A program made the position numbers and the translations under genes. Below the pieces are notes generated by a model, which saw nothing but the letters and a program-made list of their open reading frames with translations, was not told the DNA's origin and ran no database searches. From the NCBI GenBank assembly GCA_045586185.1, contig JAZMZV010000246.1:10945-74944 (forward strand): a stretch of DNA of 64,000 bases, in the 5' to 3' direction. Shown one piece after another: positions 1,777-63,259 of this stretch; the first letter of the stretch is position 1, and each line of letters starts with the position of its first letter. This stretch comes from Thermoguttaceae bacterium (GTDB lineage: Bacteria > Planctomycetota > Planctomycetia > Pirellulales > Thermoguttaceae).

Positions 1777-1875
1777 GAGGCAGTAGGCAAGAGGCAGTAG
1801 GCAGTAGTTTTCGCTTCGCGACTTCTCGCAACTCGCAACTCGCAACTCGCAACTCGCTACTCGCAACTCTCAACT
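1777..1875. repeat. heptamer-array element (GGCAGTA arm / CTCGCAA arm)
   Basis: GGCAGTA/GGCAAGA x4 (1777-1807), centre TTTTCGCTTCGCGACTT, CTCGCAA x7 (1825-1875). The last 7 codons and the TAG stop of the 1857-2717 CDS lie inside the array. Confidence 0.9.
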
Positions 1876-2717
1876 TCCAACGTAATCTCTTCCCTTGTTC
1901 CGCGAAGCAGAGGAGTCAGACCGGCGGCGGGACCGCTCGTTTCCGGAACTGGCGTCAAACCGGTTAAATTCAGGATGTCTTTGTACGTAACCGCGCCCTG
2001 AGTTTCGTCCGCCTTGAGTGTAAAGCGAAGGAAATCCTCTTTGAGCAGCGGGGCGTCTTCGGAATCGTCGTCTTGCTCTGATTCTGAAACGCTGAACTGC
2101 GTTACAACGCTCATGTCCAAAACTGCGGCCTGAACGTTTTTGTTTTCGCAGGTCAACTGACCCGACAAGGTCGGTTCCTGATTGGACGTGGGTAGCGCCG
2201 AAACTGGCTTTTTCGGAGGCATAACCTTGTCCTCCTGCCCGTGCGGCACGCACCCAGTCTGAATTTGAGTTACTTTTCCCTGAACGTCCGACCGCATGCC
2301 AGCCGGTATAGGGAATCGCCAGGTATAGGAAACGGGGCGGGCTTTTTTCCGTCCTGTTTCGGGAATCGTCTGAGCGGAGTGGAACCGCAACCCACTTGCG
2401 GAACAGGCATTTAAGGCATCCTGCAATTCGACCGGATTGTACTCAATCGCGGTTTCCAATTCCATGATTTCGTTCAGACCTTCCACGCCCAGCGGCAGCG
2501 CGCTGGGAAAACTGACTTTCGGCTTCGGATGAAATCCCTGACTCATGGCGACTTGAACTTTGGCGACTTTAAGCAGACGCAGCATATAGTTCATCAAATC
2601 GCGATGACCCAGAAATCGCAAATCTCCGTCTTTTTGAAATCTCAATCGAATTCGATGACGAGTCTCGGGCGCTGAGGAATCGTTGTTCTGCCAGCTTTTC
2701 TTCTTTTTGTTTCCCAT
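1857..2717 (-). CDS. TIGR03936/DUF2344-family protein (radical-SAM-associated family)
   Basis: N-terminal RIRLRFQKDGDLRFLGHRDLMNYMLRLLKVAKVQVAMSQGFHPKPKVSFPSALPLGVEG matches my recollection of DUF2344. The family is commonly found next to Rne/Rng genes. The C-terminal half is low complexity. Confidence 0.7.
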   Translation of the reverse strand: MGNKKKKSWQNNDSSAPETRHRIRLRFQKDGDLRFLGHRDLMNYMLRLLKVAKVQVAMSQGFHPKPKVSFPSALPLGVEGLNEIMELETAIEYNPVELQDALNACSASGLRFHSAQTIPETGRKKARPVSYTWRFPIPAGMRSDVQGKVTQIQTGCVPHGQEDKVMPPKKPVSALPTSNQEPTLSGQLTCENKNVQAAVLDMSVVTQFSVSESEQDDDSEDAPLLKEDFLRFTLKADETQGAVTYKDILNLTGLTPVPETSGPAAGLTPLLRGTREEITLEVESCE

Positions 2718-3240
2718 AGACTTCGTCCTGACGCCTGCGCCGTGCAGACGTCAGCTTGAAAAATGTGATTTATGTCAAGTTCAAGACGATAAAAGGCTAT
2801 CGGCTTTTCCCCGTCCTGAACGGATACGTCTTTTTATTACAGTATATTATATATAAAGTTGCAATTTTGTAAATAGGGATATTAAAAGAAGTTTATGCGG
2901 GGGGCTCCCAATTTGAGTTGAAAAAAACATACAAGACGGTATTTTAATTATTACCAGAAAAACCGTTATCATTCTTACATTCGGTTTATTTTAATCGCTA
3001 AATTACGCTCTTTTCTCATTCCGAAAAAAATTTTTTGAACGGGCGCTTGTATTTTTTTTGAAATCTATTAAAATTTAGCCAATTAATATTGACAGAAGCA
3101 GAAAATGAAGCAAACAGCAAATCAATTCGTAAATGTTAATTGAGAAAAATAATATTTCCTAATTAATATAATCGATACTTTCCTGTTGTTTGATTTTTCC
3201 CACCTCGAGTTCCCCGCCTTTAATCCTACCTGCCTTTGAG

Positions 3241-3627
3241 ATGAACAGATTCCAACGTAAAACGCCAGCAATGGCTCGATTGATTGTAATCCGCGGATCC
3301 GCTACAACGGACAGCGTTACCATTCCTTTGCCCTGTCTTATCGGTCGCGGTCGAGAAGTGGATTTATGCGTCGACAGCTTAATCGTAAGCCGAAATCATT
3401 GTCGTCTGGATTTACAGGATGGAAAAATCTTTCTTACCGATTTGGGATCTCGAAATGGCACTATTGTCAATGGTCAGTTCATTCCAGAAAACGTTCCTGT
3501 AGAGTTAAGCAATCAGAGCGCGTTTTCTATCGGACCGTTAACGTTTCAGCTTGAATTTCAGCCGACGGAAATCATTCATCGCGACAATCAAAGCGCCGCC
3601 AGCCACGAATTGCACGTTGCCAGTTAG
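3241..3627 (+). CDS. small FHA-domain protein
   Basis: Start moved to ATG 3241. FHA signature CLIGRGREVDLCVDSLIVSRNHCRLDLQDGKIFLTDLGSRNGTIVNG. Confidence 0.8.
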   Translation: MNRFQRKTPAMARLIVIRGSATTDSVTIPLPCLIGRGREVDLCVDSLIVSRNHCRLDLQDGKIFLTDLGSRNGTIVNGQFIPENVPVELSNQSAFSIGPLTFQLEFQPTEIIHRDNQSAASHELHVAS

Positions 3628-3634
3628 AAGGCGC

Positions 3635-3660
3635 TAGGCAGTAGGCAATAGACCGTAGGG
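3635..3660. repeat. short heptamer array (GGCAGTA type)
   Basis: TAGGCAG TAGGCAA TAGACCG TAGGG, 8 nt after the FHA gene stop. Confidence 0.7.
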
Positions 3661-3759
3661 ATGTTTAACTACAGCCTCTTTTCTTTGACGTTTTCTGTAT
3701 TTTTCGAAGTTCTTATAAATTCCTCTAGCATAAAATTGTAAAATTGGATATAATATATA

Positions 3760-3798
3760 GAGTTGCGAGTTGAGAAAAGTTCGGACGGCTCTCAACTC
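3760..3798. repeat. GCGAGTT-type repeat plus hairpin in the glgP leader
   Basis: GAGTTGCGAGTTGAG followed by a 9-bp hairpin GAGTTGAGA/TCTCAACTC (3767-3798, 14-nt loop). The track ORF start at 3770 (TTG) is inside it. Confidence 0.75.
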
Positions 3799-3838
3799 AA
3801 TGGCTATTTATCCACTATTACTTTCATTTTCCATTATC

Positions 3839-6049
3839 ATGAGTCAGACAGACCCTAACATCAGTAAACAGCTTAAAGATAAACTTGATAGCCTTGGTTT
3901 GAATGCAGAAACGCTTTACGACAAGTGCAAAGCCATGGCGAATAACCTTTGGTGGTCGTGGCATCCGGAAATCATCAACGTCTTTCGCGATCTCGACCCG
4001 GATTTGTGGCGCAAACTGGATCACAATCCAATTGCTCTGCTTCGCACTTACGAAAACGATCAGGAAAAGTTTTACGATCGAGTGTTTGAGTTGACAATGG
4101 AAGGGCGAATCAATTACGCGTTCCGCAAGCTCAAGCAGTACATGACCGACCGTCCGATTTGGGCAAAGACAAACATCGGCGTTTTGGGCGCTCGTCCGGT
4201 AGCGTACTTTTCTTTGGAGTTCGGCATTCACGAATCCGTTCCGATTTATTCCGGCGGTTTGGGCGTCCTGGCTGGCGACCACGTCAAGTCCGCCAGCGGC
4301 ATGGGCGTTCCGCTGATTGCTGTCGGTCTGTTCTACGACGAAGGATACTTCAAACAGCATCTGGATTCCAACGGGAATCAGCAGGAAGAGTACATCAACA
4401 CCAAGATTGAAGATCTGCCCATGCAGCAGGTTCTCGACAAGGACGGCAAACCGTTACGCATTCGTATTGAAACGCGAGACGGGGCAATTTTCGCCCGCGT
4501 CTGGAAGATTCAGGTCGGGCGCGTTGAGCTTTATCTGCTCGATACCGACGTCGAAGAAAACGAACAGTGCAATCGCAAGCTGACTTCTCGACTCTACGGC
4601 GGCACAAACGAAGACCGCATTCGCCAGGAGCTAATCGTTGGCGTCGGCGGCGTTCGCGCGCTGCGAGCTGTTGGAATCAATCCCGGCGTATTCCATCTGA
4701 ATGAAGGACACTGCGCTTTTGCGACGCTGGAAGTCATGCGCGACTACATTCACGAAGACGGCATGTCGTTCGACGAAGCCCAGCACACCGTCAATCGTCA
4801 AACCTGCTTTACAACGCATACGCCTGTTCCCGCCGGGCATGACCGATTCAATCAGCAGCTGATGGAAAAGTATCTCGAACCGATGAGCCGTTCGCTGGGA
4901 ATCAGCATTGATCAGCTCATGGCGTTGGGACGCGTTCATCCGGAAGACCACAACGAAACGTTCTGCATGACCGTTTTGGGCATGAAAATGGCGCGATACG
5001 TCAACGGCGTAAGCAACCTTCACGGCGTTGTTTCCCGCCGCATGTGGAAAGACCTCTGGCCGGATCGCGACGAAAACAGCGCGCCGATTGGTCACATTAC
5101 CAACGGCGTCCATCTTCCCAGCTGGCTGGCGGGTCCGCTTTGGAACCTGTACAACAGAACGTTCGTTCCGGACTGGTACGATCAGATGTACCTGTACGAG
5201 GTTTGGAGCGACATCTACAAGATCGAACCGGGCGAACTGTGGGAAACGCACCAGCTTCTCAAAAATCAGCTCATTGAATTCGTTCGCCGACGCGTTACCC
5301 GTCAGTGCGTTCGCAGAAACGAAAGCGAGTTCAGCGTCAAAGCCGCTCAAAACGTGCTCGATCCCAACGCGCTGTTGATTGGTTTTGCCAGACGTTTCGC
5401 TACGTACAAGCGCGCAACGCTGTTCATGGACGACCTCGACTGGATGCGGCGCATTTGCTCCAATCCGGAAAAGCCGGTTCAGTTTGTCTTTGCCGGCAAA
5501 GCGCACCCGGCGGACGAACCCGGTAAAGCTCTGATCAAGAAAATTGCCGAGCTTCGCAAAGACCCGGTTTTGGGAAAGAACATCGTCTTCGTTGAAGATT
5601 ACGACATCAACGTCGCCCGACATCTGGTTCAGGGCGTTGACGTCTGGATGAACAACCCGCGCCGACCTCTGGAAGCGTCGGGCACGTCCGGACAAAAAGC
5701 CGTACTTAACGGCGTTCTCAACTTCTCCGTTTTAGACGGCTGGTGGGCGGAAGCCTACAACGGCGTCAACGGATTCGCTATCGGCAACGGTCGAGCGCAC
5801 CGAACGGACGACAGCATTACAGACGCCCGCGACGCGGCTTCCCTTCGCAAGACGCTGGAAGAGGAGATTATTCCTCTGTTCTACGACCGCGACGAAGACG
5901 GCGTTCCGCTGGCGTGGGTGGAACGCATGAAGAACTCCATCGCCTCGTTGGCATGGCGATTCAGCGCTCACCGCATGGTTGTCGACTACGTTACAAAATG
6001 CTATCTTCCCGCCGCCGGAAACGTTACCTGCGACATGAACAGAAGATAA
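3839..6049 (+). CDS. glgP: alpha-glucan (glycogen/maltodextrin) phosphorylase, GT35
   Basis: Start moved to ATG 3839 (MSQTDPN). Motifs GGLGVLAGDHVKSASGMGVP, HLNEGHCAF, FVFAGKAHPADEPGK and EASGTSGQKAVLNG (PLP lysine region). Confidence 0.9.
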   Translation: MSQTDPNISKQLKDKLDSLGLNAETLYDKCKAMANNLWWSWHPEIINVFRDLDPDLWRKLDHNPIALLRTYENDQEKFYDRVFELTMEGRINYAFRKLKQYMTDRPIWAKTNIGVLGARPVAYFSLEFGIHESVPIYSGGLGVLAGDHVKSASGMGVPLIAVGLFYDEGYFKQHLDSNGNQQEEYINTKIEDLPMQQVLDKDGKPLRIRIETRDGAIFARVWKIQVGRVELYLLDTDVEENEQCNRKLTSRLYGGTNEDRIRQELIVGVGGVRALRAVGINPGVFHLNEGHCAFATLEVMRDYIHEDGMSFDEAQHTVNRQTCFTTHTPVPAGHDRFNQQLMEKYLEPMSRSLGISIDQLMALGRVHPEDHNETFCMTVLGMKMARYVNGVSNLHGVVSRRMWKDLWPDRDENSAPIGHITNGVHLPSWLAGPLWNLYNRTFVPDWYDQMYLYEVWSDIYKIEPGELWETHQLLKNQLIEFVRRRVTRQCVRRNESEFSVKAAQNVLDPNALLIGFARRFATYKRATLFMDDLDWMRRICSNPEKPVQFVFAGKAHPADEPGKALIKKIAELRKDPVLGKNIVFVEDYDINVARHLVQGVDVWMNNPRRPLEASGTSGQKAVLNGVLNFSVLDGWWAEAYNGVNGFAIGNGRAHRTDDSITDARDAASLRKTLEEEIIPLFYDRDEDGVPLAWVERMKNSIASLAWRFSAHRMVVDYVTKCYLPAAGNVTCDMNRR

Positions 6050-6075
6050 AACAAGACAACTCTGAGAACAGAAAA

Positions 6076-6115
6076 AAGGCGCGAAGCATTGATTTGCTTT
6101 GCGCCTTTTGTGTTT
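6076..6115. terminator. bidirectional intrinsic terminator between glgP and the convergent FAD oxidoreductase gene
   Basis: 12-bp stem AAGGCGCGAAGC/GCTTTGCGCCTT (one G-U) with an 8-nt loop. TTTTGTGTTT follows on plus and TTTTTTCTGTT on minus. Confidence 0.6.
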
Positions 6116-6149
6116 CAATTGCTAATTGACAATTGCTAATTGCAAATTA
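6116..6149. repeat. GCTAATT-type heptamer array
   Basis: CAATTGCTAATTGACAATTGCTAATTGCAAATTA. It overlaps the TAA stop (6147-6149, minus) of the FAD oxidoreductase gene. Confidence 0.8.
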
Positions 6150-7517
6150 TCCCAAGTACGCCTTTTGCGTTCGGAGCAGATCGCGGACGGCGGGGATGTC
6201 AACGTTGCGAATGTAGTCGACGTTGGTTTTGACCGCAACGGCGGCGGCGCATCCGGCGGCGTGTCCGCTGACCCAGCAGGTCGGAATGACGCGGATGTCG
6301 TCTGACATGCGGTGTTCGCCGGAAAGGCTTCGTCCAGCAGTGATAATATTCTCGACGTTCTGCGGCAGCATCGCGCCAAAGGGAATCTGCCATCGCTGAT
6401 GGTTGGCGTTCCAGGAACCGGAATAGGCGAGGAAGTCGTCAAAATGTTGATTTGTTTCCATGCCGTGGTAAGTTACGGTTTCGACGCCGTCGATAACGCG
6501 AGTGATTCTCACGCCCATCTGAGGAGCGGTTTGAGCCAAAAAGACGTTGTCCGTTCCCGGCTGTTTTTTGAGGTTGAGGTAATTCTGCCAGATGTGCTTT
6601 CGGTGCGCCAGTTCCAGACGAGTCAGCTCTTTGACGTCAACGCCGTTGGACTGCGGTCCGGACATGTTGACCCAGTTCAGACCGGGAACGGGCGTAACGC
6701 TGCCTAAGCCTCGCAGGGGCGGCTGACCCTGCCGTTTGCTGTTGTCAATTTGATTCAAACCGCCCAGAGTATGAACCAGTCCGGCGGCGAATTTTCTAAC
6801 CTGATGTTTCGCTCCGGCGGCTGCGAAAATGTCGCCGTCTCCGGTCGTGTCGATAACCTGTTTAGCAAGAATCGCCTGCGGTCCGGACTTGCATTCAAAG
6901 ATCGCGCCTTTGCAGACGTTGCCGGACATAATCGCGTCCGTCGCCCAGGAATGAAGCAGAATCTCGACGTTCGCTTCTGTCAGCATTTCCTGTAACAGAT
7001 ACTTGTACGCTTCCGCGTCGATGGTGGGATTGACGCCGTGCCTGCGGTTGACGATTCCCAACGGCATCGCTTCCAGACGCTGCATGTATTCCTCGCCAAT
7101 TCCCTGACAGCAGGAGAACGGCTGCTCTCCTTTGCTTTGCCGCGCCCAATGTCCCAAAATAACCAGAACCAGCCCGCCTGTCGCCAAACCGCCGAAATGG
7201 TTGTAACGTTCTACAAGCGTTACTTTGACGCCCGCTCTTGCCGCGGCAATTGCAGCTGTACAGCCCGCCGGGCCGGCGCCGACGACCAGAACGTCGGTTT
7301 CGCTGATAGTTGGAATCGTTCTCGCCGGTCGGACGACAGCGCCGTTTTCAACGCGGCACGGATTGACCTCGTCTGCGACCTCGACGAAATTCAGTTTCCC
7401 TCCCAAAGAGGACTCGTCCGCCTTGGCGCTTTGAGGGGATAAAAACATGCCAGCTGCCGCGCCTGCGGCTGTCGTCAGCGTGGACTTAAGCAAATCTCTG
7501 CGGGAAATGGAAGTCAT
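6147..7517 (-). CDS. Tat-exported FAD-dependent oxidoreductase
   Basis: Twin-arginine signal MTSISRRDLLKSTLTTAAGAAAG...AKA. Dinucleotide-binding motif DVLVVGAGPAGCTAAIAAARAGVKVTLVER. Confidence 0.8.
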   Translation of the reverse strand: MTSISRRDLLKSTLTTAAGAAAGMFLSPQSAKADESSLGGKLNFVEVADEVNPCRVENGAVVRPARTIPTISETDVLVVGAGPAGCTAAIAAARAGVKVTLVERYNHFGGLATGGLVLVILGHWARQSKGEQPFSCCQGIGEEYMQRLEAMPLGIVNRRHGVNPTIDAEAYKYLLQEMLTEANVEILLHSWATDAIMSGNVCKGAIFECKSGPQAILAKQVIDTTGDGDIFAAAGAKHQVRKFAAGLVHTLGGLNQIDNSKRQGQPPLRGLGSVTPVPGLNWVNMSGPQSNGVDVKELTRLELAHRKHIWQNYLNLKKQPGTDNVFLAQTAPQMGVRITRVIDGVETVTYHGMETNQHFDDFLAYSGSWNANHQRWQIPFGAMLPQNVENIITAGRSLSGEHRMSDDIRVIPTCWVSGHAAGCAAAVAVKTNVDYIRNVDIPAVRDLLRTQKAYLG

Positions 7518-10800: not shown

Positions 10801-11891
10801 TTTTTCAATAGCGGGTTTTCCAGCAGAGCCTGACGTTTCAGCGCGTCCAGACGCTCAAACAGCACGTCCGGCGCGACCGTTGCAGCGTCCTTTTCCAATG
10901 CCGCCAGTTGGTCAAGATACTTCTGACCGTTGACGTAATCCTGCGGGTGCGAAGCCGCACGGGCAGAAGGACAAGGTTTTGCCTCCGAAAAAGCCGGTTT
11001 TGGCGCTACCCACTTCCAATCAGGAACCGACCTTGTCGGGAACGATTCCATCAAGTCGTTAATCGCCAGTTTGAGCGATTCGACTTCATGTTCAAAGTCG
11101 CGTTCCATAGCCGCAATTTGACGTTCGTTTAACGTCGCGTTGGGATTGTACGGCGTCAATTCAATCCACGTTGACGGCGTTTGAAGATAGTTCAAAACGT
11201 TTGACGTGAATTTCGTCAAATTGTCGTAAAAGGCGTTGTTTTTATCGGAATAACACGTCAAACGCCAGCCGGATGTAATAATTCTGCCCTTCCCCAGCGA
11301 GTATTCCCAAATCGGCTTTTCGTCGCCAAAGGCGGACGCCGCCAACAGCGTCCCGCCCCGGGGCTGAATCGCGTGGAAGTCTGAAAAAGCAGAATAGCCG
11401 CCGTCGGAAAAATAGATCGCCGCCCGATTCTGACCCTGCTCGTTCCCACGCTTCAGCCCGTTAAAAACAGGCGACTGTGCGCCATTTTTAATTATAAATG
11501 GAATCGCCGCGCCCGGGTTCCGGTCGTGATTTCCCGCCAGCTGACGAGGCGTAACGGTTTCCAAACCAAACTGATTCAATATCCGCCACGACGCCCCGGT
11601 CAGAAAAAGCCCGCCGCCCTGTTCGACAAATGCTTTGATCTTCGCCGCGTCCGCGTCAGAGACAGCGTACTTCTCGCTATCGCCCAGGTGAATCCATAAA
11701 ACGGACGTCTCCGACAGACGATCTGCCGTTACTTCCAGAAAATCCGGGAACAGAGTTTTCCCCAACGCCAAGGCGGACTCGTACTCTGCGCCCGTTACAG
11801 ACGGCTTGAGAATCGCCGGGCTTTTCGCCCAGACGTCAGCCGAAATCAGGACGCTAACAACAACTGTAATCAACAGGAACGTTCTTTTCAT
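7869..11891 (-). CDS. large exported multidomain protein with C-terminal FGE/SUMF1-type (formylglycine-generating enzyme-like) domain and two CXXCH motifs
   Basis: Start moved to ATG 11891 (signal peptide MKRTFLLITVVVSVLISADVWA). C-terminal motifs WISKTEITNAQF, RVSCQEAEQFCQWL, LPTDVQWTYAARAG, NAWGLYDVHGNAAEW and GGSF. CVGCH occurs twice (nt ~9356-9370 and ~9206-9220). The central region looks like a TolB/PD40-type propeller. Confidence 0.85.
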   Translation of the reverse strand: MKRTFLLITVVVSVLISADVWAKSPAILKPSVTGAEYESALALGKTLFPDFLEVTADRLSETSVLWIHLGDSEKYAVSDADAAKIKAFVEQGGGLFLTGASWRILNQFGLETVTPRQLAGNHDRNPGAAIPFIIKNGAQSPVFNGLKRGNEQGQNRAAIYFSDGGYSAFSDFHAIQPRGGTLLAASAFGDEKPIWEYSLGKGRIITSGWRLTCYSDKNNAFYDNLTKFTSNVLNYLQTPSTWIELTPYNPNATLNERQIAAMERDFEHEVESLKLAINDLMESFPTRSVPDWKWVAPKPAFSEAKPCPSARAASHPQDYVNGQKYLDQLAALEKDAATVAPDVLFERLDALKRQALLENPLLKNVKSILAIRRTAGNLGLPSNWASNSSLRHTGYDNDIVSIPLSPQAVPKPEDVKTVYRPQSNEYVGELDLHFNADRLMFSKPHLLKDGGNDRWQLFEIPLTDDALSGQGTVEARKIQTIDHSDVDNYDACYLPDGRIIFTSTAPMIGVPCVRGSSHVTNTYVRYQDGRVRQLTFDQEHNWNPTVMPNGRIMYLRWEYTDTPHAFYRLMFTMNPDGTNQVSYYGSNSYWPNSMFNAKPTPGNANRFYAIVVGHHDVNRSGELVLFDTSISDFEADGAVQKIGQRGKKVEPIIKDGLTGASWPKFLHPSPLSDKYVIVSCKPSPLSKWGVYLVDVFDNFVLLYEQPGYAILEPIPLQKTPIPPAIVDRTNPESKTATVFLADIYTGPGLKGIRRGEVKQLRVFTYNYSYHGMGGQYDRVGLDGPWDVRSVLGTVPVEEDGSAHFTVPANTPIALQPLDENGAALQLMRSWFTAMPGEVVSCVGCHQNNNLAPVRQRTIAGNRPASKITSFYGPDRGFSFRREVQPVLDKYCVGCHTDNRDKTNPVLAVVPETFSLENTDDIPLVAGNAMYNNGGRFSKSYMNLRRFVRGHTIESDAHLLSPREFHVSTTRLFQTLRNDSAGHYGVTDMLSPQDWDVLTTWVDMNTPFHGTWIEVSGHQRTDRQAQLREELREMYSDLVQDQEGIFNPYVPGAVKPVLPPKDKIDAGLKARNSNRNSAPTIAIQEPFDSQKIKTVTLPNGETIEFVYVPKGTLNGQPTGGFWISKTEITNAQFHAFDPKHDSRYEFGDFLVFSLLDRGFQTDGPDQPVVRVSCQEAEQFCQWLSQQLGKDGTDCSLPTDVQWTYAARAGSTNPKFYYGKIDDDFSSFANLSDVTNYVMPTFAPWSLPSDAVEPWRPADERFNDSVRATANVATYKPNAWGLYDVHGNAAEWLNCDGDAALAAGGSFNSRPSESAFDSRIPYPKNQPVYDVGFRVILKNIAN

Positions 11892-15337: not shown

Positions 15338-15393
15338 GCAGTAGGCAATAGGCAGTAGGCAGTAGATATTACTCGCAACTCGTTACTCGCAAC
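15335..15393. repeat. heptamer-array element (GGCAGTA arm / CTCGCAA arm)
   Basis: TAGGCAG TAGGCAA TAGGCAG TAGGCAG TAG, then ATATTA, then CTCGCAA CTCGTTA CTCGCAA CC. The aroC TAG stop is the first unit. The array ends 4 nt before ATG 15398. Confidence 0.9.
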
Positions 15394-46864: not shown

Positions 46865-47012
46865 GGCATTAAATTGGGGGTTAGAAGTAAACGTTTGGAA
46901 AGAGTCCCTCGCTATTCCTATTTATAATATACGATTTATTTAAGAAAAAGAAACCGGGAGACAGAAAAATACTGGAAAATTCTTGATTTTTATTTTTGGT
47001 TGGTTTATAATT

Positions 47013-48490: not shown

Positions 48491-48511
48491 TTAGGCAGTA
48501 GGCAGTAGTAA
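48488..48511. repeat. GGCAGTA heptamer arm
   Basis: TAGTTAGGCAGTAGGCAGTAGTAAG begins with the TAG stop of the 47120-48490 CDS. Confidence 0.85.
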
Positions 48512-48518: not shown

Positions 48519-48585
48519 CAAGCGACCAACGGGAGTGGTTGTTGGCAAACGCGCGGCAGCGCGGATTGGGAGCGGCGCCTCGCCG
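48519..48585 (+). repeat. ~67-nt GC-rich dispersed element, copy 2
   Basis: CAAGCGACCAACGGGAGTGGTTGTTGGCAAACGCGCGGCAGCGCGGATTGGGAGCGGCGCCTCGCCG. See 36624-36692. A 14-nt fragment CGGCGAGGCGCCGC also occurs at ~11983. Confidence 0.85.
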
Positions 48586-48616
48586 TCTCGCAACTCGCCA
48601 CTCGCCACTCGCAACT
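48586..48616. repeat. CTCGCAA/CTCGCCA heptamer arm
   Basis: TCTCGCAACTCGCCACTCGCCACTCGCAACT ends 16 nt before ATG 48633. Confidence 0.9.
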
Positions 48617-52228: not shown

Positions 52229-52258
52229 CTATTTCCTATTCCCTACTCCCTATTCCCT
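52229..52258. repeat. CCCTATT/CCCTACT heptamer arm (single arm)
   Basis: CTATTTCCTATTCCCTACTCCCTATTCCCT ends 8 nt before ATG 52267. The track ORF start at 52162 reads through it. Confidence 0.85.
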
Positions 52259-53833: not shown

Positions 53834-54010
53834 AGGCAATAGGCAGTAGGCAGTAGGCAGTAGGCAATAGTGATTCGCCTTCGGCGAATTTAAAACACAT
53901 AATATTCCCAATAGTCTAAATTAATGACTTCCGTGGGGTTGATGGTTAAAGAAGACAGTATGCAGTAGTAAAGATTTCCCTACTGCCTACTGCCTCTTGC
54001 CTACTGCCTA
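53834..54010. repeat. heptamer-array element (GGCAGTA arm / ATTCGCC hairpin / 85-nt insert / CTACTGC arm)
   Basis: GGCAATA/GGCAGTA x5 (53834-53870), ATTCGCCTTCGGCGAAT (53873-53889), unrelated AT-rich DNA, then CCCTACTGCCTACTGCCTCTTGCCTACTGCCTA (53978-54010). It lies between convergent stops. Confidence 0.9.
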
Positions 54011-56745: not shown

Positions 56746-56908
56746 AAGTTTTTCTCTTAAAGGGGTTAAAATTGAAACAACATTATATTTTAAACTATAT
56801 AATAATATTATACACGAAAACAATATTTAATGATACGTCAAAAGTCCCCTATTTGTTCTTTTTTATCTAAAATAGAGGGGAAAAGTTAGAAAAAGAGACA
56901 GTATTAAA

Positions 56909-57030
56909 TAGCTTTTAGCCTCTAGCTTCTAGTTATTAGCTTTGTGATTTTAGCTTCCTGCTTTAATGAATAAACCTGAGAACCACAAAAAACAAGCTAA
57001 CAGCTAGCGGCTAGCAGCTAATAGCTTATC
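56909..57030. repeat. ~120-nt GCTAG-family long-hairpin element, copy 2
   Basis: ATAGCTTTTAGCCTCTAGCTTCTAGTTATTAGCTTTGTGATTTTAGCTTCCTGCTTTAATGAATAAACCTGAGAACCACAAAAAACAAGCTAACAGCTAGCGGCTAGCAGCTAATAGCTTATC aligns along its length with 25707-25838. Confidence 0.85.
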
Positions 57031-58630: not shown

Positions 58631-58762
58631 GACAGTAGGCAATAGTGGAATGTGGTTAGTGGTAAGTGGTTAGTGAGATGAGCGCTTGCGTCCTAACCAC
58701 TAACCACTAATAACTTACTACTATTCCCTACTCCCTACCCCTCACCTACTAACCCCTTCCCT
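58631..58762. repeat. heptamer-array element (GGCAATA/GGTTAGT arm, ACCACTA/CCCTACT arm) containing the 65-nt element 58644-58708
   Basis: GACAGTAGGCAAT AGTGGAATGTGGTTAGTGGTAAGTGGTTAGTGAGATGAGCGCTTGCGTCCTAACCACTAACCACT AATAACTTACTACTATTCCCTACTCCCTACCCCTCACCTACTAACCCC. Confidence 0.9.
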
Positions 58763-58765
58763 ACC

Positions 58766-60163
58766 ATGACTCGTTACATCACAACTATCGTTTTTGCTTT
58801 GTTTATCTCGCTGACGTCGGCGCTGTTGGCCGACGAGATGATTCAAGTCGTTAACTTTACCGACGGGACGGAAATTGATTACCCGGTCGCGCTGCTGCGA
58901 GGGCGTCTTTCCGATGAAACCGCAACGGAAATCGTCTGTACGAATTTGTCGTCGCAGAAAGCGTCTCGACAGATTCACGGCGACGCCTGGAAAGGTCAGT
59001 TTAAAGTTCTTGCTGAACTCGTTCCCGGTGAAAACGAACTCGAACTGACAAGCGGAGACAATAAAACAACGCTGAAGCTGAACTACAAAAAGAACTCCAA
59101 TCCGCTGGTCGTCCGCATGATTTACATGACGGATTCCACCGGCGACACGACGTTCCAAACGCCGTATGAAAACGACCCTCAGAACTTCAAGGGCAAGCTG
59201 GACACGGCTCTTAAATTGATGCAGTGTTTTACCGCTGAAACCATGAATGACGCCGGGCTTGGCAGAAAGACGTTCAATCTGGAACTGGACGAAAACGGCA
59301 ACGTCATTGTTCACGTCTTCAAAGGGGAGAAGACGATGGAAGAATACGCCGCTCTTTCTGATAACGAATGGTATTCAACGGTCTATCGGGAAATTTCAAA
59401 TGACTTCCCGTGGTACAATGGGAAGAACCTCGTCATTCCCGCTTACACGCGTTTTGATCCTGAAACCAAACGGGCGAAATGTCACACAGCCCTGGGCGGC
59501 GGAAGTCTGGCTCTGTTTGGATCGGGCTGCATGTACACGTGGCCGGACTCGCTCGACGGCGTTGTCAAGGCGTTTACAGATTCCACGCCCGTTGATAAAG
59601 AACGTTTCCATGACGACACCGCTTTCCGTTCCGTCTATTGGGCAGCGGCGTCAACGACAATCGGCGCGGCTCTGCACGAGTTGGGACACACCTTCGGTCT
59701 GCCTCACTCCAACCAGCCGCGCGACATCATGACCCGTGGAATCGACCAGTTCAACCGCTTTTTCGTTATGCGTGAAGCCCCCAGCCGATACAACCGAGAT
59801 TGGCGGGAAAATTTGGATGACAGAGCCGCCAACTGGTCGCTCATTTCCGCCGCGGCGCTGAACGTCAGCCCGTTCTTCCAGGACGAAGCGCCGGCTGAGA
59901 ATCAAGGAAGAGTTAGTCTGCAGATTGTCGACGACGGGAAAGCTGTTGAGGTCGAGGCGGAAAACGGCATCGCCTATTTCGGCGTTATGTCTGACGGACA
60001 TCGCCAGTATTTCGTTGCCCCTCAACCAGGTCAGGAGCTGCCTAAGCAGATGCGATTCTCCGTTCAGGAACTCAAAGACAACGTCAAAAATATCAAAGGC
60101 AGTTTGGAAATTCACGCCATTGACCGCTACGGAAAGACGAGAAGCGTTCATGTTAGGCCGTAG
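58766..60163 (+). CDS. exported metzincin-type zinc metalloprotease (paralogue 1)
   Basis: Signal peptide MTRYITTIVFALFISLTSALLA. HELGHTFGLPHS (HExxHxxGxxH). 465 aa. Confidence 0.85.
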   Translation: MTRYITTIVFALFISLTSALLADEMIQVVNFTDGTEIDYPVALLRGRLSDETATEIVCTNLSSQKASRQIHGDAWKGQFKVLAELVPGENELELTSGDNKTTLKLNYKKNSNPLVVRMIYMTDSTGDTTFQTPYENDPQNFKGKLDTALKLMQCFTAETMNDAGLGRKTFNLELDENGNVIVHVFKGEKTMEEYAALSDNEWYSTVYREISNDFPWYNGKNLVIPAYTRFDPETKRAKCHTALGGGSLALFGSGCMYTWPDSLDGVVKAFTDSTPVDKERFHDDTAFRSVYWAAASTTIGAALHELGHTFGLPHSNQPRDIMTRGIDQFNRFFVMREAPSRYNRDWRENLDDRAANWSLISAAALNVSPFFQDEAPAENQGRVSLQIVDDGKAVEVEAENGIAYFGVMSDGHRQYFVAPQPGQELPKQMRFSVQELKDNVKNIKGSLEIHAIDRYGKTRSVHVRP

Positions 60164-60238
60164 GGAATAGACAGTAGGCAGTAGTAGTTCGCCTTCGGCG
60201 AATTTCGCTCCTCACTCCTCACTCCTAATTCCTGACTC
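60161..60238. repeat. heptamer-array element (GGGAATA/GGCAGTA arm / TTCGCC hairpin / CTCCTCA arm)
   Basis: TAGGGAATAGACAGTAGGCAGTAGTAG, TTCGCCTTCGGCGAA (60188-60202), CGCTCCTCACTCCTCACTCCTAATTCCTGACTC. The TAG stop of paralogue 1 is the first unit. Confidence 0.9.
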
Positions 60239-60276: not shown

Positions 60277-61680
60277 ATGACTCGTTACATTACAACTTTT
60301 GTTTTTGCTTTATTTATTTCGTTGACGTCGGCGCTGTTTGCCGACGAGGAAATTCAAGTCGTCAATTTTACCGACGGGACGGAAATCGACTACCCGGTCG
60401 CGTTGCTGCGCGGGCGTCTTTATGACGAATCCGCAACGGAAATCGTCTGTACGAATTTGTCGTCGCAAAAAGCCTCTCGACAGATTCACGGCGACGCCTG
60501 GAAAGGTCAGTTCAAAGTCCTTGCTGAACTCGTTCCGGGTGAAAATGAACTTGAACTGACAAGTGGGGATTATAAAACAACGCTGAAACTGAACTACAAA
60601 AAGAACTCTAATCCGCTGGTTATCCGCATGATTTACATGACGGATTCGACTGGCGACACGACTTTTCAAACGCCGTATAAAAATGACCCGCAAAATTTCA
60701 AGGGCAAGCTTGACACGGCTCTTAAATTGATGCAGTGCTTTACAGCAGAAACCATGAACGACGCCGGGCTTGGCAGAAAGACGTTCAATCTGGAACTGGA
60801 CGAAAACGGCGACGTCGTCGTTCACGTTATAAAAGGGAAGAAGACGGCGAAGGAATACGGCTCGGTTTCCGATGAAGACTGGTACGACATGGTTTATGAT
60901 GAAATTACGCCCCAGTTCCCGGAAGATTCCGGACGCAACCTCGTCATTCCGTCTTACACGCGTTTTGATCCCAAAACCAAAGAGGCGAAATGTCACACCG
61001 CGCTGGGCGGCGGCTGTCAGGCGCTGTTCGGCTCTGGCTGCATGTATACGTGGCCGGATTCGCTCGATAGCGTTGTCAAGGCGTTTACGGACTTCACCCC
61101 CGTTGACGGCAAACATTTCCATGACGATTCCGCTTACCGTTCCGTTTACTGGGCGTCGGCGTCAACGACAATCGGCGCGTCACTGCACGAGTTGGGACAC
61201 ACTTTCGATTTGCCCCATTCCACCGAACCGCGCGACATCATGACCCGAGGAATCGACCAGTTCAACCGCTTTTTCGTCATGCGGGAAGCCCCAAGTAAAG
61301 AAAACGACGATTGGCTGGAAAACATCGACAACGAAGCCGCCAACTGGTCGCCCATTTCCGCCGCGGCGCTTAACGTCAACCGGTTCTTCCAGGATGAACC
61401 GCCGAAAGACGACGAAGGGAACGTCGACATTGAGCTTATTGACGACAATCAGACCGTTAAACTCGAAGCGGAAAACGGCATCGCCTTTTTCGGCGTCGCG
61501 TCCGGTGAAGATCGTCAGCTGTACGTTGCGCCTCTACCCGGTCAGCCGCTGCCAAAACAGATGCGATTCTCCGTTGATGAACTCAAAGACGGCTGCGAGG
61601 AATTCAAAGGCGACTTGGAACTTCACGTCATGGACCGGTACGGGAAGACGGAGAGTATTCATATTAAAATAAGGGAATAG
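60277..61680 (+). CDS. exported metzincin-type zinc metalloprotease (paralogue 2)
   Basis: Signal peptide MTRYITTFVFALFISLTSALFA. HELGHTFDLPHS. 467 aa. The first ~185 aa are nearly identical to paralogue 1. Confidence 0.85.
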   Translation: MTRYITTFVFALFISLTSALFADEEIQVVNFTDGTEIDYPVALLRGRLYDESATEIVCTNLSSQKASRQIHGDAWKGQFKVLAELVPGENELELTSGDYKTTLKLNYKKNSNPLVIRMIYMTDSTGDTTFQTPYKNDPQNFKGKLDTALKLMQCFTAETMNDAGLGRKTFNLELDENGDVVVHVIKGKKTAKEYGSVSDEDWYDMVYDEITPQFPEDSGRNLVIPSYTRFDPKTKEAKCHTALGGGCQALFGSGCMYTWPDSLDSVVKAFTDFTPVDGKHFHDDSAYRSVYWASASTTIGASLHELGHTFDLPHSTEPRDIMTRGIDQFNRFFVMREAPSKENDDWLENIDNEAANWSPISAAALNVNRFFQDEPPKDDEGNVDIELIDDNQTVKLEAENGIAFFGVASGEDRQLYVAPLPGQPLPKQMRFSVDELKDGCEEFKGDLELHVMDRYGKTESIHIKIRE

Positions 61681-61800
61681 GGAATGGGGAGTAGGGAGTA
61701 GTGGAAAGTGGTTAGTGGTAAGTGGTTAGTGAGATGAACGCCTGCGTCCTTACCACTTACCACTCAAAACTTACCACTCAAAACATACCACTTAGAACTT
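61673..61800. repeat. heptamer-array element (GGGAATA/GGTTAGT arm, CTTACCA arm) containing the 65-nt element 61700-61764
   Basis: GGGAATAGGGAATGGGGAGTAGGGAGT AGTGGAAAGTGGTTAGTGGTAAGTGGTTAGTGAGATGAACGCCTGCGTCCTTACCACTTACCACT CAAAACTTACCACTCAAAACATACCACTTAGAACTT. It ends 3 nt before the umuC ATG. Confidence 0.9.
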
Positions 61801-61803
61801 ACC

Positions 61804-63063
61804 ATGCTCTTCGCTCTGGCTGACTGTAACAGTTTTTACGCGTCGTGCGAGACGGCGTTCAAGCCGTTTCTGCGCGGACGCCCTGTTATTGTCCTGTCGA
61901 ACAACGACGGCTGCGTTGTCGCCAGAAGCCGGGAAGCGAAACAGCTTGGAATCGCCATGGGCGCGCCGTTTTTCCAGATTCGGGAATTTTGCCGCGCCAA
62001 TCGCGTTGCCGTTTTTTCTTCAAACTACGCTCTTTACGGCGACATGAGCCAGCGGGTCATGCAAACCCTGGCGTCTATGGTTCCGGAAATTGAACAGTAC
62101 TCCATCGACGAGGCGTTTTTGAATCTGACCGGAATGAGAAACGTTACAACGGCGTTTGCCGAGTCTATCGTTGACCGCGTCAAGCTCTGGACGGGAATTC
62201 CGATTTCCATTGGAATCGCCCCGACCCGAACGCTGGCAAAAGTCGCCAACCGTCAGGCGAAAATGGACGGCATCAAAACCTGTCTGCTGCTGGACGAATC
62301 CAAACGAATCGACGTTCTGAAACGCTTTCCGGTGGAAGAAGTCTGGGGCGTTGGACGTCAGCTGTCGGTCAAGCTGGAACGAATGGGAATCAGGTCTGCT
62401 TTCGACCTCGCTCAGCAAGACCCGGTTCAAATCCGTAAACGATTTACCGTCATTCAGGAGGCGATGGTTCGGGAACTCAACGGGGAATCCAGCCTGGGAA
62501 ATCAGCAGTCCCCGCCGACGGCGAAAAGCATTCAGACGTCCCGCTCGTTCGGCAAGCCGCGATACGAGTTTGACGCCCTTTCTTCTGCAATTTCGACGTT
62601 CGTTTCCCGCGCGGCGGAAAAGCTGAGGGAGCAGGGACAAGTCGCTCGCGCTGTTGACGTCTATATTCGCACCAGCCCGTTTAGACCGGTCGCGCAATAC
62701 ACTGCGTCAACCGTCGTTCCGCTTGGACGTCCCACCAGCGACACGCTTCTGCTGACGCAAGCGGCTCTTGACGGGCTTGCCAAAATCTTTCAGCCTAACT
62801 TCGCCTATCAGAAAGCGGGAATTATTCTTATTGACCTGTCCTCCGCCGCAGTCAACAGCGCCCAGCTGACCTTTTTCGACGACCCGGTAGAACTGGAACG
62901 CCGCGCCGGACTGATGAAAACCCTCGACCGGCTCAACGAAAAGTTCGGCCGCAGTTCTGTCATGACGGGAACTCAGCTTTTAGACGACTCTTGGAAATCC
63001 GTCCAACAAAACACGTCCCCCCGATACACAACTGAATGGGACGATCTGCCGGTGGCAAAATAG
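61804..63063 (+). CDS. umuC: Y-family translesion DNA polymerase, UmuC-like (Pol V catalytic subunit)
   Basis: MLFALADCNSFYASCETAFKPFLRGRPVIVLSNNDGCVVARSREAKQLGIAMGAPFF is collinear with E. coli UmuC. 419 aa. Confidence 0.9.
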   Translation: MLFALADCNSFYASCETAFKPFLRGRPVIVLSNNDGCVVARSREAKQLGIAMGAPFFQIREFCRANRVAVFSSNYALYGDMSQRVMQTLASMVPEIEQYSIDEAFLNLTGMRNVTTAFAESIVDRVKLWTGIPISIGIAPTRTLAKVANRQAKMDGIKTCLLLDESKRIDVLKRFPVEEVWGVGRQLSVKLERMGIRSAFDLAQQDPVQIRKRFTVIQEAMVRELNGESSLGNQQSPPTAKSIQTSRSFGKPRYEFDALSSAISTFVSRAAEKLREQGQVARAVDVYIRTSPFRPVAQYTASTVVPLGRPTSDTLLLTQAALDGLAKIFQPNFAYQKAGIILIDLSSAAVNSAQLTFFDDPVELERRAGLMKTLDRLNEKFGRSSVMTGTQLLDDSWKSVQQNTSPRYTTEWDDLPVAK

Positions 63064-63092
63064 GCAGTAGGCAATAGGCAGTAGGCAGTAGT
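63061..63092. repeat. GGCAGTA heptamer arm
   Basis: TAGGCAGTAGGCAATAGGCAGTAGGCAGTAGT begins with the umuC TAG stop. Confidence 0.9.
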
Positions 63093-63140
63093 TATATCGT
63101 ACGCAACTGGAAACGGGGTTCTCAATAGTCAAAATTCCTC

Positions 63141-63169
63141 TTGTCAAATTGAGTGTTTTCTGCTAATAT
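63141..63169 (+). promoter_or_regulatory. sigma70-like promoter for the 63289 gene
   Basis: TTGTCA (63141-63146), 17-nt spacer, TAATAT (63164-63169). The ~110-nt leader contains the next array. Confidence 0.45.
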
Positions 63170-63180
63170 ATAATAAATTA

Positions 63181-63259
63181 GCTATTGAGTAGCGAGAAAC
63201 GATAGAACGCAACGTCTCACACAATTCTTCTCGCAACTCGTTACTCGCAACTCGCAACT
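63181..63259. repeat. short GCGAGTA-type segment plus CTCGCAA arm in a leader
   Basis: GCTATTGAGTAGCGAG, AAACGATAGAACGCAACGTCTCACACAATTCTT, CTCGCAACTCGTTACTCGCAACTCGCAAC. Confidence 0.85.

Follow-up and report, generated by a model that had tools for sequence, protein, structure and literature searches.

What are the tandem heptanucleotide arrays that recur between the genes of a rumen planctomycete, and what places them so regularly against stop and start codons? The question is raised by a 64,000-nucleotide stretch of Thermoguttaceae bacterium DNA (NCBI GenBank assembly GCA_045586185.1, contig JAZMZV010000246.1, positions 10,945 to 74,944 of the forward strand), which is referred to as the window and numbered from its first letter. 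With a probability of roughly 0.55, the arrays are considered to be the building blocks of dispersed, rapidly exchanged, non-coding modules of ~30-180 nt in untranslated regions (UTRs), which would arise through slippage and copying and be filtered by selection.

The initial annotation had listed period-7 arrays in almost every spacer between genes. Tandem Repeats Finder (TRF) gave about 45 rows with a period of 7 or 14 at the coordinates listed there, and an independent periodicity scan found 25 strict period-7 arrays, compared with a mean of 0.15 and a maximum of 1 in 100 second-order Markov simulations of the window, which confirms the arrays as such. In the same scan, periods 4-6, 8 and 12 gave none, and periods 9-11 gave one or two each. 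A relaxed scan (at least two copies) returned 44 period-7 arrays. Two of these lie deep inside open reading frames (ORFs), both with two copies of unrelated units (AGCCGCC at 7982 and AGCCGTC at 52859), while maximal ORFs make up 89% of the window. Arrays are thus not as frequent in coding sequence as in spacers, and the claim that they are restricted to spacers and gene termini was essentially right, except that the composite at 20474-20562 is truly coding. Other ORFs whose 5' ends overlap arrays are over-extended, and the true starts at 28747, 31968 and 52267 were fixed by orthologues; arrays of this kind mislead ORF callers at gene starts and probably fragment short-read assemblies of such genomes.

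About 40 arrays are spread over 22 of the 39 spacers (~56%), a count that includes the degenerate arrays at 3629-3680 and 3747-3775, so that "almost every spacer" was too strong. Five of the eight divergent spacers carry arrays. The density is one array locus per ~2.8 kb (an earlier estimate was ~2.5 kb), or ~4 arrays per 10 kb, and is uneven, sparse in the first 1-20 kb and nearly continuous in 44-64 kb. Array length has its mode at 30-31 nt, most arrays measure 30-33 nt (about four units), and TRF copy numbers cluster at 4.3-4.7. The length distribution is not geometric, and the peak at 30-31 nt includes families without G-tracts. All unit families listed earlier were recovered, namely GGCAGTA/GGCAATA, GGGAATA/GGGAGTA, GCGAGTT (read as CTCGCAA), GTGGTTA/GTGGTAA, GCTAATT and GCTAGNN, and CTCCTCA at 60208 was added. 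The proposed common skeleton G-N-N-A-R-T-W accommodates most families loosely, GTGGTTA only when read as GTTAGTG, and CTCCTCA (GGAGTGA on the other strand) not at all. Descent of the families from a single diverging unit was not demonstrated; in their behaviour they are distinct modules that can replace one another.

In its full form, a module consists of a G-rich heptamer array of ~31 nt, a short stable hairpin or variable centre, and a G-poor array, and has the same reading on either strand. In 16 of 17 two-array spacers the G-rich array precedes the G-poor one on the + strand, and the 17th is of the near-palindromic GCTAG type. Orientation relative to coding sequence ends was tabulated for the array nearest each stop or start codon, read on the sense strand. 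Arrays after stop codons are G-rich in 16 cases, G-poor in one and neutral in three; arrays before start codons are G-poor in 14 cases, G-rich in two and neutral in one. The G-rich units mostly contain TAG, TAA or TGA, and because 7 is not a multiple of 3, three units provide a stop in every frame. Most G-rich arrays can be written as (UAG-N4) x4 with a final UAG, or (GAG-N4) x4 with a final GAG, and four genes terminate on the array's own TAG (15335, 60161, 61678 and 63061). The G-poor arrays contain almost no ATG, GTG or TTG and reach to 0-40 nt from the ATG, usually without a Shine-Dalgarno motif. The G content at -30..-1 is 7.7% for genes with arrays and 13.7% for genes without them, against 25% overall. 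Shine-Dalgarno motifs are few in leaders throughout the window, which suggests that Shine-Dalgarno-independent initiation is the norm in this organism. Promoter-like -35/-10 pairs lie just upstream of arrays at 23610-23638, 28637-28664, 45101-45130, 45061-45034 (- strand), 46983-47011 and 63141-63169; therefore, the upstream arrays lie in 5' leaders. The placement of arrays behind promoter-like sites and directly next to start and stop codons makes it likely that they are part of the transcripts, as 5' and 3' UTR sequence.

The arrays and modules are listed below, where z denotes folding relative to shuffled sequence and the source is given in brackets.

1777-1875, no strand assigned: G-rich GGCAGTA/GGCAAGA x4.3 (1777-1807), a 17-nt centre and G-poor CTCGCAA x7.3 (1825-1875), between the RNase E/G start and the DUF2344 gene stop, with the last DUF2344 codons and stop within the array; the arms are heterologous and form no significant hairpin, z -0.3 and -1.0 (TRF, periodicity scan).

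3629-3660, + strand: degenerate GGCAGTA-type array, 1 nt past the stop of an FHA-domain gene (family D14).

3747-3775, + strand: GAGTTGC x2, preceded by a TATAAT-like box, within the leader of alpha-glucan phosphorylase, whose ATG is at 3800 (family D17).

6117-6148, no strand assigned: AATTGCT/AATTGAC array x4.6 in a convergent spacer (TRF).

15335-15393, + strand: (TAGGCAG) x4.4, 5 nt, then (ACTCGCA) x3.3 ending 4 nt short of the next ATG; the TAG at 15335 is the chorismate synthase stop codon (TRF).

20474-20562, + strand: composite inside a coding sequence, with GGGAATA x4.4, the small palindrome AATTCGCC-GGA-GGCGAATT and CTACTGC x4.3 (orthologue comparison).

22138-22207, no strand assigned: GAGTTGC x4.4, centre AATCGCCGCTTGCGTA and CTACTGC x3.3 in a convergent spacer (TRF).

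23644-23778, + strand: GTAATKA x2.7, a GC-rich centre and CTACTTA/CTAACCA x5 in the leader of gene 23793, z -2.7 and -3.8 (TRF).

25706-25824, no strand assigned: GCTAG type, with (AGCTNNT) x4.6, a 53-nt AT-rich centre and (AGCTAAN) x4.7, in the convergent spacer past gyrB and predicted to fold into a long hairpin, z -7.1 and -7.3; contigs L212, L213, L216 and L206 have related copies (TRF).

28676-28705, + strand: AGTTGCG x4.3, G-rich in the sense direction, in the leader of the gene with its true start at 28747, beginning ~12 nt past the strong promoter-like site 28637-28664 (TRF).

29317-29396, no strand assigned: GGGAATA x2.7, a UUCG-loop palindrome and CTACTCC x4.9, forming a predicted hairpin in a convergent spacer, z -4.5 and -6.1.

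31988-32076, - strand: spacer from LpxD to squalene/phytoene synthase, with GGGAATA/GGGAATG x6, a UACG-loop palindrome and CTACTCC x2 in the sense direction, z -6.8 and -3.0.

33162-33267, - strand: spacer from aspartyl-tRNA synthetase (AspRS) to LpxD, with GGCAGTA-type x4, loop AAAATTTT, CTACTGC x4 and a G-free CTAYTCC x4 leader in the sense direction that ends 3 nt from the LpxD ATG, z -5.7 and -8.1.

36700-36729, + strand: CTCGCCA/CTCGCAA x4.3 in the leader of a 1406-aa ORF, probable ATG at 36741 (TRF).

44930-45018, no strand assigned: GGGAATA/GGGAATG x7.4, a centre and a short CTCGCAA-type array; the first array, which ends 9 nt from the ATG of gene 44225-44920, is G-poor when read in the direction of that gene (TRF).

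45150-45180, + strand: CTCGCAA x4.4, 17 nt before the ATG of a GH43 gene and downstream of the promoter-like site 45101-45130 (TRF).

47013-47098, + strand: AGTTGCG x4.3, a centre with GCTCTTGCGTC and AATTGCT x4.6, with the promoter-like site 46983-47011 directly upstream (TRF).

48492-48508, + strand: TAGGCAG x2.4, 1 nt past the stop of a BNR_4 gene (TRF).

48587-48616, + strand: CTCGCAA/CTCGCCA x4.3, 16 nt before the ATG at 48633 (TRF).

52229-52258, + strand: CTATTCC/CTACTCC x4.3 leader ending 8 nt before the cellulase ATG at 52267 (TRF).

53834-54010, no strand assigned: ~179-nt composite in the convergent spacer between the cellulase and M16 peptidase genes, with GGCAGTA x5 and a UUCG palindrome past the cellulase stop, and GGCAGTA-type x4.6 (- strand) with a degenerate partner arm past the M16 stop, z -8.5 and -7.9.

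56907-57027, no strand assigned: GCTAG-type composite hairpin of ~121 nt upstream of a conserved M16 peptidase promoter, predicted dG -38.8 and -44.9 kcal/mol; it is absent at the corresponding place in L213 and L214.

58643-58742, + strand: GTGGTTA/GTGGTAA x3.4, centre GAGATGAGCGCTTGCGTC, CTAACCA x2.6 and a G-free CTAYTCC leader, z -5.4; the module is 89% identical to 61690-61778 (family D15).

60154-60238, + strand: mixed G-array x4.4, a UUCG palindrome and CTCCTCA x4.4; the TAG of the G-array at 60161 is the stop codon of gene 58766-60163 (TRF).

61672-61804, + strand: GGGAATA/GGGAGTA x4, GTGGTTA x4.6, a centre and CTTACCA-type x8 running into the ATG at 61804; the TAG at 61678, inside the first array, is the stop codon of gene 60277-61680 (TRF).

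63061-63091, + strand: TAGGCAG x4.4, whose first TAG is the stop codon of a DinB-like gene (TRF).

63230-63259, + strand: CTCGCAA x4.3 between the promoter-like site 63141-63169 and ORF 63289, in the leader of the latter (TRF).

53871-53897, + strand: representative copy of a small dispersed palindrome, rrTTCGCC-N3/4-GGCGAATTTAAAA (pattern search).

20507-20531 (+), 29336-29362 (+), 32004-32029 (-) and 60185-60207 (+): further copies of the small palindrome (pattern search).

Comparison with related contigs, designated by L numbers, provided evidence for both slippage and exchange. The ~179-nt composite at 53834-54010 differs from its counterpart in L216 by the gain or loss of exactly one 7-nt unit in near-identical sequence. 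It is 98.3% identical to that counterpart, its non-repetitive centre of ~110 nt included, while the flanking coding DNA is 86% identical; this contrast may reflect either a recent transfer or conversion, or unusually strong constraint. Separate loci in the window also share arrays. Those at 15335 and 63061 are identical over 31 nt, including an internal GGCAATA variant, those at 28676-28705 and 47013-47042 are identical, and the unusual unit GGCAAGA is found at 1777, 33237 and 53979 as well as in another genome (L111).

Orthologous spacers often hold different modules. In the AspRS-LpxD spacer, the window has a GGCAGTA hairpin and L206 a GCTAG-type module (LpxD 93% identical), with the start-proximal CTAYTCC leader and the flanks kept. 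The LpxD-squalene/phytoene synthase spacer contains GGGAATA arrays and a palindrome in the window, a short GCTARAA array in L206, GGAGTTA/GGAGCGA in L207 (79%), and no array but a canonical terminator in L210 (67%). At the M16/cellulase spacer, a GGCAGTA composite is present in the window and in L216b, and a GCTAG-type composite in L212 (93%) and L216a; L212 has an additional ~120-nt GCTAG element upstream of the cellulase gene. In L001 (gyrB 95.8% identical at the nucleotide level), a ~100-nt GTGGTAA hairpin module lies in the gyrB leader, downstream of a conserved -10 box, and is missing from the window. The related genomes have the families in common, while the modules at corresponding positions differ.

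Two structural oddities were seen in these contigs. L216 carries tandem M16 peptidase copies (466-3492 and 4061-7449; 91% and 86% identical to the window gene), each followed by a different heptamer module; this is a genuine duplication, or else a chimera of two strains that the assembly joined at repeats. L001 and L002 have identical gyrB regions and diverge right after the S21 terminator (~13160), where repeats and a CTCCTCA array begin in L001; this could be a rearrangement or an assembly break at repeats.

One module has entered a gene. The composite at 20474-20562 lies in frame within ORF 20442-22139, at about residues 12-40. The N-terminus MPNFDFLT (M..P.F.FLT.P) is kept in the L004 orthologue, which lacks the module and has an unrelated linker of similar length in its place. 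The G-rich array offers five positions for TAG. Four of them are out of frame (frames 1 and 2), and at the fifth, in frame 0, the unit is GGGAACA and the codon CAG. Judged from the sequence, the change of TAG to CAG is the footprint to be expected if a module inserts into a coding region and can persist there only after losing its in-frame stop, and this single case indicates that the three-frame-stop property matters.

The arrays are not a local oddity. The same unit families occur at 2-5 arrays per 10 kb in L001-L004, L036, L062, L111, L116, L206, L207 and L210-L216, while 80 unrelated metagenomic loci around AspRS homologues (763 kb; best AspRS match 64%) have a background of 0.16 arrays per 10 kb, against 3.9 in the window. 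An origin confined to this lineage is contradicted by scans of species-representative genomes and viral contigs for three tandem GGSARTA units. At least 119 loci were found in genomes; among the matches listed, roughly half are cyanobacterial, and Bacteroidota, Mesorhizobium and other Hyphomicrobiales, Acidobacteriota, several Planctomycetota and rumen metagenome-assembled genomes (MAGs) are also present. In genomes of 63-70% GC the layout is unchanged (stop, G-array, centre, G-poor array, start). The viral contigs contributed at least 120 loci, with 5 arrays per 10 kb among the matches listed. Adjacent pairs stand in the G-then-C order 43 times and in the C-then-G order 0 times among the 119 listed genome loci, and 101 and 2 times among the 120 listed viral loci (144 against 2 for both sets). 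Seeded with GGSARTA as they were, these scans show that the kind of array is widespread, not that GGSARTA units are universally preferred.

Outside this set, soil metagenome contigs (~59% GC) contain heptamer arrays associated with the HisRS gene (L173 2512-2543, L194 2143-2174, L190 6481-6514 and 6781-6807). A four-unit CTCGCCA array lies inside the HisRS coding region and is read as HSPLATRHSPL, and in L190 an inverted GTGGCGA array gives the HisRS stop codon through a TAG variant unit. Matches to TTCGCC-N3-GGCGAA in the soil contigs were rejected as copies of the small palindrome, being HisRS coding sequence (GFAIGED). In the more distant relative L211, a period-10 array (GGACAACTGC)n of ~9 copies lies upstream of LpxD (4730-4830), where there is no heptamer module.

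The centres of the modules vary. The small palindrome has five copies (four perfect, one variant), all between arrays. Read in the direction of the upstream gene, each of the five comes after a G-rich array, and they thus have one polarity. Its loops are UUCG in three copies, UACG in one and GGA in one, so that four of the five are of the UNCG type. The predicted dG is -6 to -11 kcal/mol, the two stem variants are G-U compatible on the sense strand, and the palindrome is followed by UUU and then AAAA. In the related contigs, one further site was seen, the copy in the orthologous composite of L216. Other centres contain CGCTTGCGT / ACGCAAGCG, or 50-110 nt of unique sequence (25706-25824, 53834-54010 and 56907-57027). 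GCNYTTGCGTM was rejected as a second centre family, with three matches against 0.8 expected; it recurs in relatives as ACGCAAGCG, and no consistent structure or polarity could be defined for it. Folding relative to shuffled sequence gave z < -4 on at least one strand for 7 of 17 array pairs (z -4.5 to -8.5 on the better-folding strand). No enrichment was seen for terminator-like sites (34 versus 26.6 expected, and 28 versus 29.9), which do not coincide with modules except at one GCTAG array (57015-56996).

These observations can be combined into a mechanism. Slipped-strand mispairing alters the copy number by single heptamers, a step shown by the one-unit difference from L216. Whole arrays and composites, seen copied or replaced between loci and genomes, may travel by transposition, template switching or gene conversion as candidate routes. 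Purifying selection would then retain only the harmless polarity, a cause suggested by the observed pattern and by the TAG-to-CAG case. The stop-rich, G-rich arm would be tolerated against gene 3' ends. The G-poor arm, which is start-free and without Shine-Dalgarno-like runs, would be the only arm tolerated just upstream of start codons, where it resembles the general leaders of this genome. A palindromic module with a G-rich 5' arm on both strands would satisfy these constraints in either orientation, and it is proposed that the near-absence of C-then-G pairs across phyla follows from this. Complementary arms are predicted to give long RNA hairpins with UNCG-type loops. Repetitive extragenic palindrome (REP) hairpins stabilise upstream mRNA, and by analogy the module hairpins may plausibly act like REPs or bacterial interspersed mosaic elements (BIMEs), as 3'-end stabilisers or terminator-like insulators. 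The G-poor arm could plausibly serve as an unstructured leader for Shine-Dalgarno-independent initiation.

Several points weigh against the idea of rapidly exchanged, selection-filtered modules. The contrast of 98% and 86% identity could reflect strong purifying selection on a functional RNA rather than transfer. In the window and the related contigs compared, no mobilising transposase, target-site duplication or parent element was found for the modules; L213 encodes an IS630-like transposase, but heptamers are absent from the ends of that element. Where one genome has a module and another lacks it, the entire spacer has been exchanged and there is no clean insertion, so that mobility in the strict sense is not proven. 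About half of the pairs are non-complementary (GGCAGTA with CTCGCAA) and fold no better than shuffled sequences. The module hairpins lack U-tracts, although relatives have canonical terminators, and when the long arms are compared for G-U versus A-C asymmetry, the strand indicated is not consistent across the hairpins. Finally, upstream of three genes (3760, 28676 and 47013) the arrays of the GAGTTGC family run counter to the polarity rule.

A broader version of this idea, which is doubtful, holds that palindromic modules with heptamer arrays as their arms form a widespread, so far unnamed "orientation-proof" class found in many phyla and in phages, a portable intercistronic insulator spread by copying. 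If true, such a module would provide three-frame stops upstream, a capped hairpin, and a G-free and start-codon-free leader downstream, either way round. The ~31-nt length (four units and three bases) would then reflect the copying machinery or a bound protein and not G-quadruplex formation.

Among the alternatives, it is rather unlikely that the modules are host functional RNA elements fixed by selection (terminators or 3'-end stabilisers together with translation leaders), with the turnover being convergent replacement. The UNCG-type loops in four of five palindromes, the G-U compatible stems on the sense strand, the single polarity in five of five and the composite kept at 98% fit this explanation. 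So do the G-poor leaders general in this genome and the array-bearing spacers without canonical terminators, while the array-free L210 has one in the same spacer. It does not account for presence and absence differing between genomes with 96% identical gyrB DNA, nor for the module within a coding region. Moreover, many pairs are unable to form hairpins, and the predicted hairpins have no U-tracts.

Plain microsatellites, formed by polymerase slippage in situ and surviving where frameshifts are harmless, with neither copying between loci nor a function, are an unlikely explanation as well. In the summary given in PMC4679880, heptanucleotides are the commonest long simple-sequence repeats in many prokaryotes, with slippage as the proposed origin (Mrazek 2007). 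The one-unit difference from L216 and the strong non-coding bias agree with that origin, but slippage does not explain identical arrays with the same internal variant at separate loci, lengths that peak at 30-31 nt, or the strict G-then-C polarity. Orthologous spacers hold different families and not longer or shorter versions of one, and the ~110-nt non-repetitive centre of the 179-nt composite is far better conserved, with its arms, than the flanking genes. The replacement of whole modules and a composite that outconserves its flanks point to copying or selection beyond slippage.

A third alternative is that the arrays provide multiple binding sites for an oligomeric protein that recognises one triplet of RNA or DNA per 7 nt, or that the G-poor arrays are Rho loading sites resembling Rho utilisation (rut) sites, which would protect genes from antisense or read-through transcription. 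HutP binds UAG-N4-UAG-N4-UAG, and most G-rich arrays read (UAG-N4) x4 with UAG or (GAG-N4) x4 with GAG; there is a fixed preferred size of 4-5 triplets, orientation strictly follows the direction in which genes are transcribed, and the antisense strand of the gene 3' flank is a C-rich, G-poor array. This explanation is quite improbable, since the window encodes no candidate protein and many unrelated unit sequences behave alike.

G-quadruplex (and i-motif) regulatory repeats, with four units providing four G-tracts, have been proposed for GGGNATC arrays and are very improbable here. Arrays of GGGAATA/GGGAGTA with at least four GGG tracts are present at 20476, 33167, 44930 and 61672, with complements at 29363 and 32030, and published work showed that GGGAATC-type oligonucleotides form quadruplexes in vitro and gave the same positional rule for the genomic repeats (Rehm 2015, PMC4692102). 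Most families (GGCAGTA, GCGAGTT, GCTAATT, GCTAGNN, GTGGTTA and CTCCTCA) have no GGG tracts yet the same polarity, and 22 of 30 arrays of GGG-less families measure 30-33 nt by TRF. Just as implausible are REP doublets forming hairpins (REPINs) that owe their mobility to a Y1 transposase, either a REP-associated tyrosine transposase (RAYT) or one of the IS200 type. The arms are indeed inverted, hairpin-forming doublets, and L001 encodes a 153-aa Y1 transposase, which matches the IS200 model at E = 2.7e-20 and scores 27 bits with the RAYT model, where the cut-off is 80. Its gene has another palindrome, CCGTGGGTTNAAACCCACGG + AACCGCTAACGCGGTT, on its flanks and no heptamer arrays, and both this palindrome and a transposase gene are absent from the window.

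Other dispersed elements were seen in the window and its relatives. The Y1 gene of L001 (4130-5200), with 3-4 copies of the CCGTGGGTTNAAACCCACGG + AACCGCTAACGCGGTT palindrome pair on each side, is a classic RAYT/REP-style arrangement. An ~87-nt element (CCGACAAGGTCGGTTCCTGATTGGA...CTGCCCGTGCGGC) is present at 2161-2247 and, inverted and with 94% complementarity, at 10954-11040. Both copies are in frame within long ORFs, the DUF2344 gene and a 1355-aa FGE-sulfatase-like gene, and a third copy is intergenic (L216 3763-3854); it looks like another small mobile element that tolerates translation. A ~70-nt GC-rich element (AAGCGACCAACGGGAG...CGCGCGGCAGCGCGGATTGGGAGCGGCGCCTCGCCG) at 48520-48587 (+) and 36622-36691 (-) adjoins CTCGCCA/CTCCTCA arrays, and occurs in L001 (~13170-13370 and 1573-1646) and L036 (~3510-3530). 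It has two or three short predicted hairpins and no Rfam match.

The host is a planctomycete of the family Thermoguttaceae from the rumen, as judged from its sequence relationships. The GyrB of the window is 99% identical to that of a MAG labelled Thermoguttaceae bacterium, its relatives form a graded identity series with Thermogutta lowest at 65%, and the related contigs are, by their names, from ruminant gut metagenomes (among them sheep rumen, goat omasum and water buffalo). This agrees with the gene content, earlier described as Planctomycetota-like. The HIP1 octamer (highly iterated palindrome) is typical of cyanobacteria. A cyanobacterial origin was considered and rejected, as HIP1 sites are absent from the window and GyrB leads to Thermoguttaceae.

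The window is ordinary chromosome, with genes for RNase E/G, glycogen phosphorylase, chorismate synthase, GyrB, AspRS, LpxD, UvrD, several glycoside hydrolases and a DinB-like polymerase. No transposase gene was found among the window genes, and no tRNA or tmRNA genes and no Rfam 15 matches at gathering thresholds were found in the window; the sub-threshold matches are to miRNA-precursor hairpin models only (E up to 0.5). Chorismate synthase gave no match when looked up as an exact protein sequence. With 74% DNA similarity to the gene for L21 in L004 (14622-14936, PF00829), the 104-aa ORF at 19884-20198 (-) corresponds to ribosomal protein L21, and the overlapping + strand ORF 19929-20264 is probably spurious. 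Two ankyrin-repeat genes (12374-13969 and 18085-19761) have 99-nt periodic repeats (TRF 18590-18938, 3.5 copies) and are ~60-70% related over these repeats. A small Lys/Ala-rich ORF at 41670-42062 with internal 15-nt and 45-nt repeats (AAKKTVAKKA...) is reminiscent of histone H1-like nucleoid proteins and gave no Pfam match. The gene at 35454-36623 encodes a topoisomerase VI subunit A / Spo11-type protein (TP6A_N and Toprim) on a bacterial chromosome. The tandem metallopeptidase genes at 58766-60163 and 60277-61680 (PF12044) are paralogues with 85-89% DNA identity and have a different heptamer module in each flanking spacer.

Intergenic heptanucleotide arrays have been known since 1990, when the short tandemly repeated repetitive (STRR) sequences were described; the arrays of the window are new for the lineage, and their kind has already been described. 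The STRR heptanucleotides of heterocystous cyanobacteria, reportedly with the units CCCCAGT, TTGGTCA and CAACAGT in the work of Mazel and colleagues (1990), are likewise intergenic and tandem, with many copies and several unit families per genome. The unit sequences are unrelated to those of the window, the host phylum differs, and HIP1 is absent here. For Nostoc punctiforme, Elhai and colleagues (2008), whose work is cited in PMC3116915, reportedly described small dispersed repeats (SDRs), very small and apparently mobile hairpins (~21-27 nt) that sit nested within tandem heptamers. In the window, the TTCGCC-N3-GGCGAA palindrome is also a multi-copy hairpin in this size range inside tandem heptamers (five of five copies between arrays), a likeness to the Nostoc families by description only, in a different host phylum. 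Rickettsia palindromic elements (RPEs), according to Ogata and colleagues (2000), are reportedly inserted in frame in protein-coding genes and translated. The module at 20474-20562 is in frame as well, and the arms resemble the terminal inverted repeats of miniature inverted-repeat transposable elements (MITEs) around a variable centre. Unlike in RPEs and MITEs, the arms are tandem heptamers, there is only one in-frame case, no recognisable target-site duplication or parent insertion sequence was identified in the contigs compared, and spacers differ by replacement.

REPs, BIMEs and REPINs (PMC3116915) share with the modules the short extragenic palindromes, the inverted doublets with hairpins in spacers (in the window, the 7 of 17 pairs with z < -4), the many dispersed copies and the variability between strains. 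REPs are not tandem heptamers, however, and the REPIN link to a RAYT flanked by the same REP was not found in the window or L001. The TAACTGA direct repeats of marine Beggiatoaceae, Cyanobacteria and Bacteroidetes, for which a translational role was proposed (MacGregor 2015, PMC4679880), have 2-6 copies, lie mostly a few nucleotides before start codons in spacers without canonical ribosome-binding sites, and are patchily distributed across phyla. In these respects they resemble the window arrays, but they consist of a single unit, whereas the window has many families that also occur at 3' ends and in inverted pairs. A further precedent is the (GATAGRA)n heptamer repeat in Chloroflexus.

A literature search found no description of heptamer arrays in Planctomycetota or Thermoguttaceae, nor of these exact arrays, in line with the expectation of the initial annotation; exact-string queries returned unrelated eukaryotic papers on short hairpin RNA and G-quadruplexes. 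STRR, which had been named as the nearest precedent, is of the right kind as a heptanucleotide repeat, and the closest precedent is the set of GGGNATC and GGGGA(C/T)T heptamers in Xanthomonas and Nostoc (Rehm et al. 2015, PMC4692102). Those repeats occur genome-wide with a non-coding bias and a preference for about four units. They follow a strand and distance rule relative to ORFs (G-rich on the coding strand right behind stops, and on the non-coding strand right ahead of starts), with stop-codon overlaps and inverted pairs able to form stem-loops, vary greatly in length and sequence between close relatives, and are under-represented between divergent ORFs. The window arrays share the non-coding bias, the four-unit preference, the strand and distance rule, the stop-codon overlaps, the inverted pairs and the variability, and with lengths and a frequency above chance they belong among the long simple-sequence heptanucleotide repeats, although GGG tracts are confined to the GGGAATA/GGGAGTA families.

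The differences from the Rehm repeats lie in the units (GGGAATA/GGGAGTA and families without G-tracts), in the host phylum, in the joining of arrays with a small palindrome and variable centres into composites, and in the divergent spacers, where under-representation is not evident. The four-unit preference of the window also extends to families unable to form quadruplexes, and together with the strand rule in those families it weakens the published quadruplex rationale. The window thus extends heptamer arrays to the Planctomycetota (rumen Thermoguttaceae) at ~4 arrays per 10 kb, and adds a multi-family composite architecture, module replacement at orthologous sites and an in-frame insertion to the known picture. 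Such a dense, multi-family case could help to address the function of the whole class of heptamer arrays.

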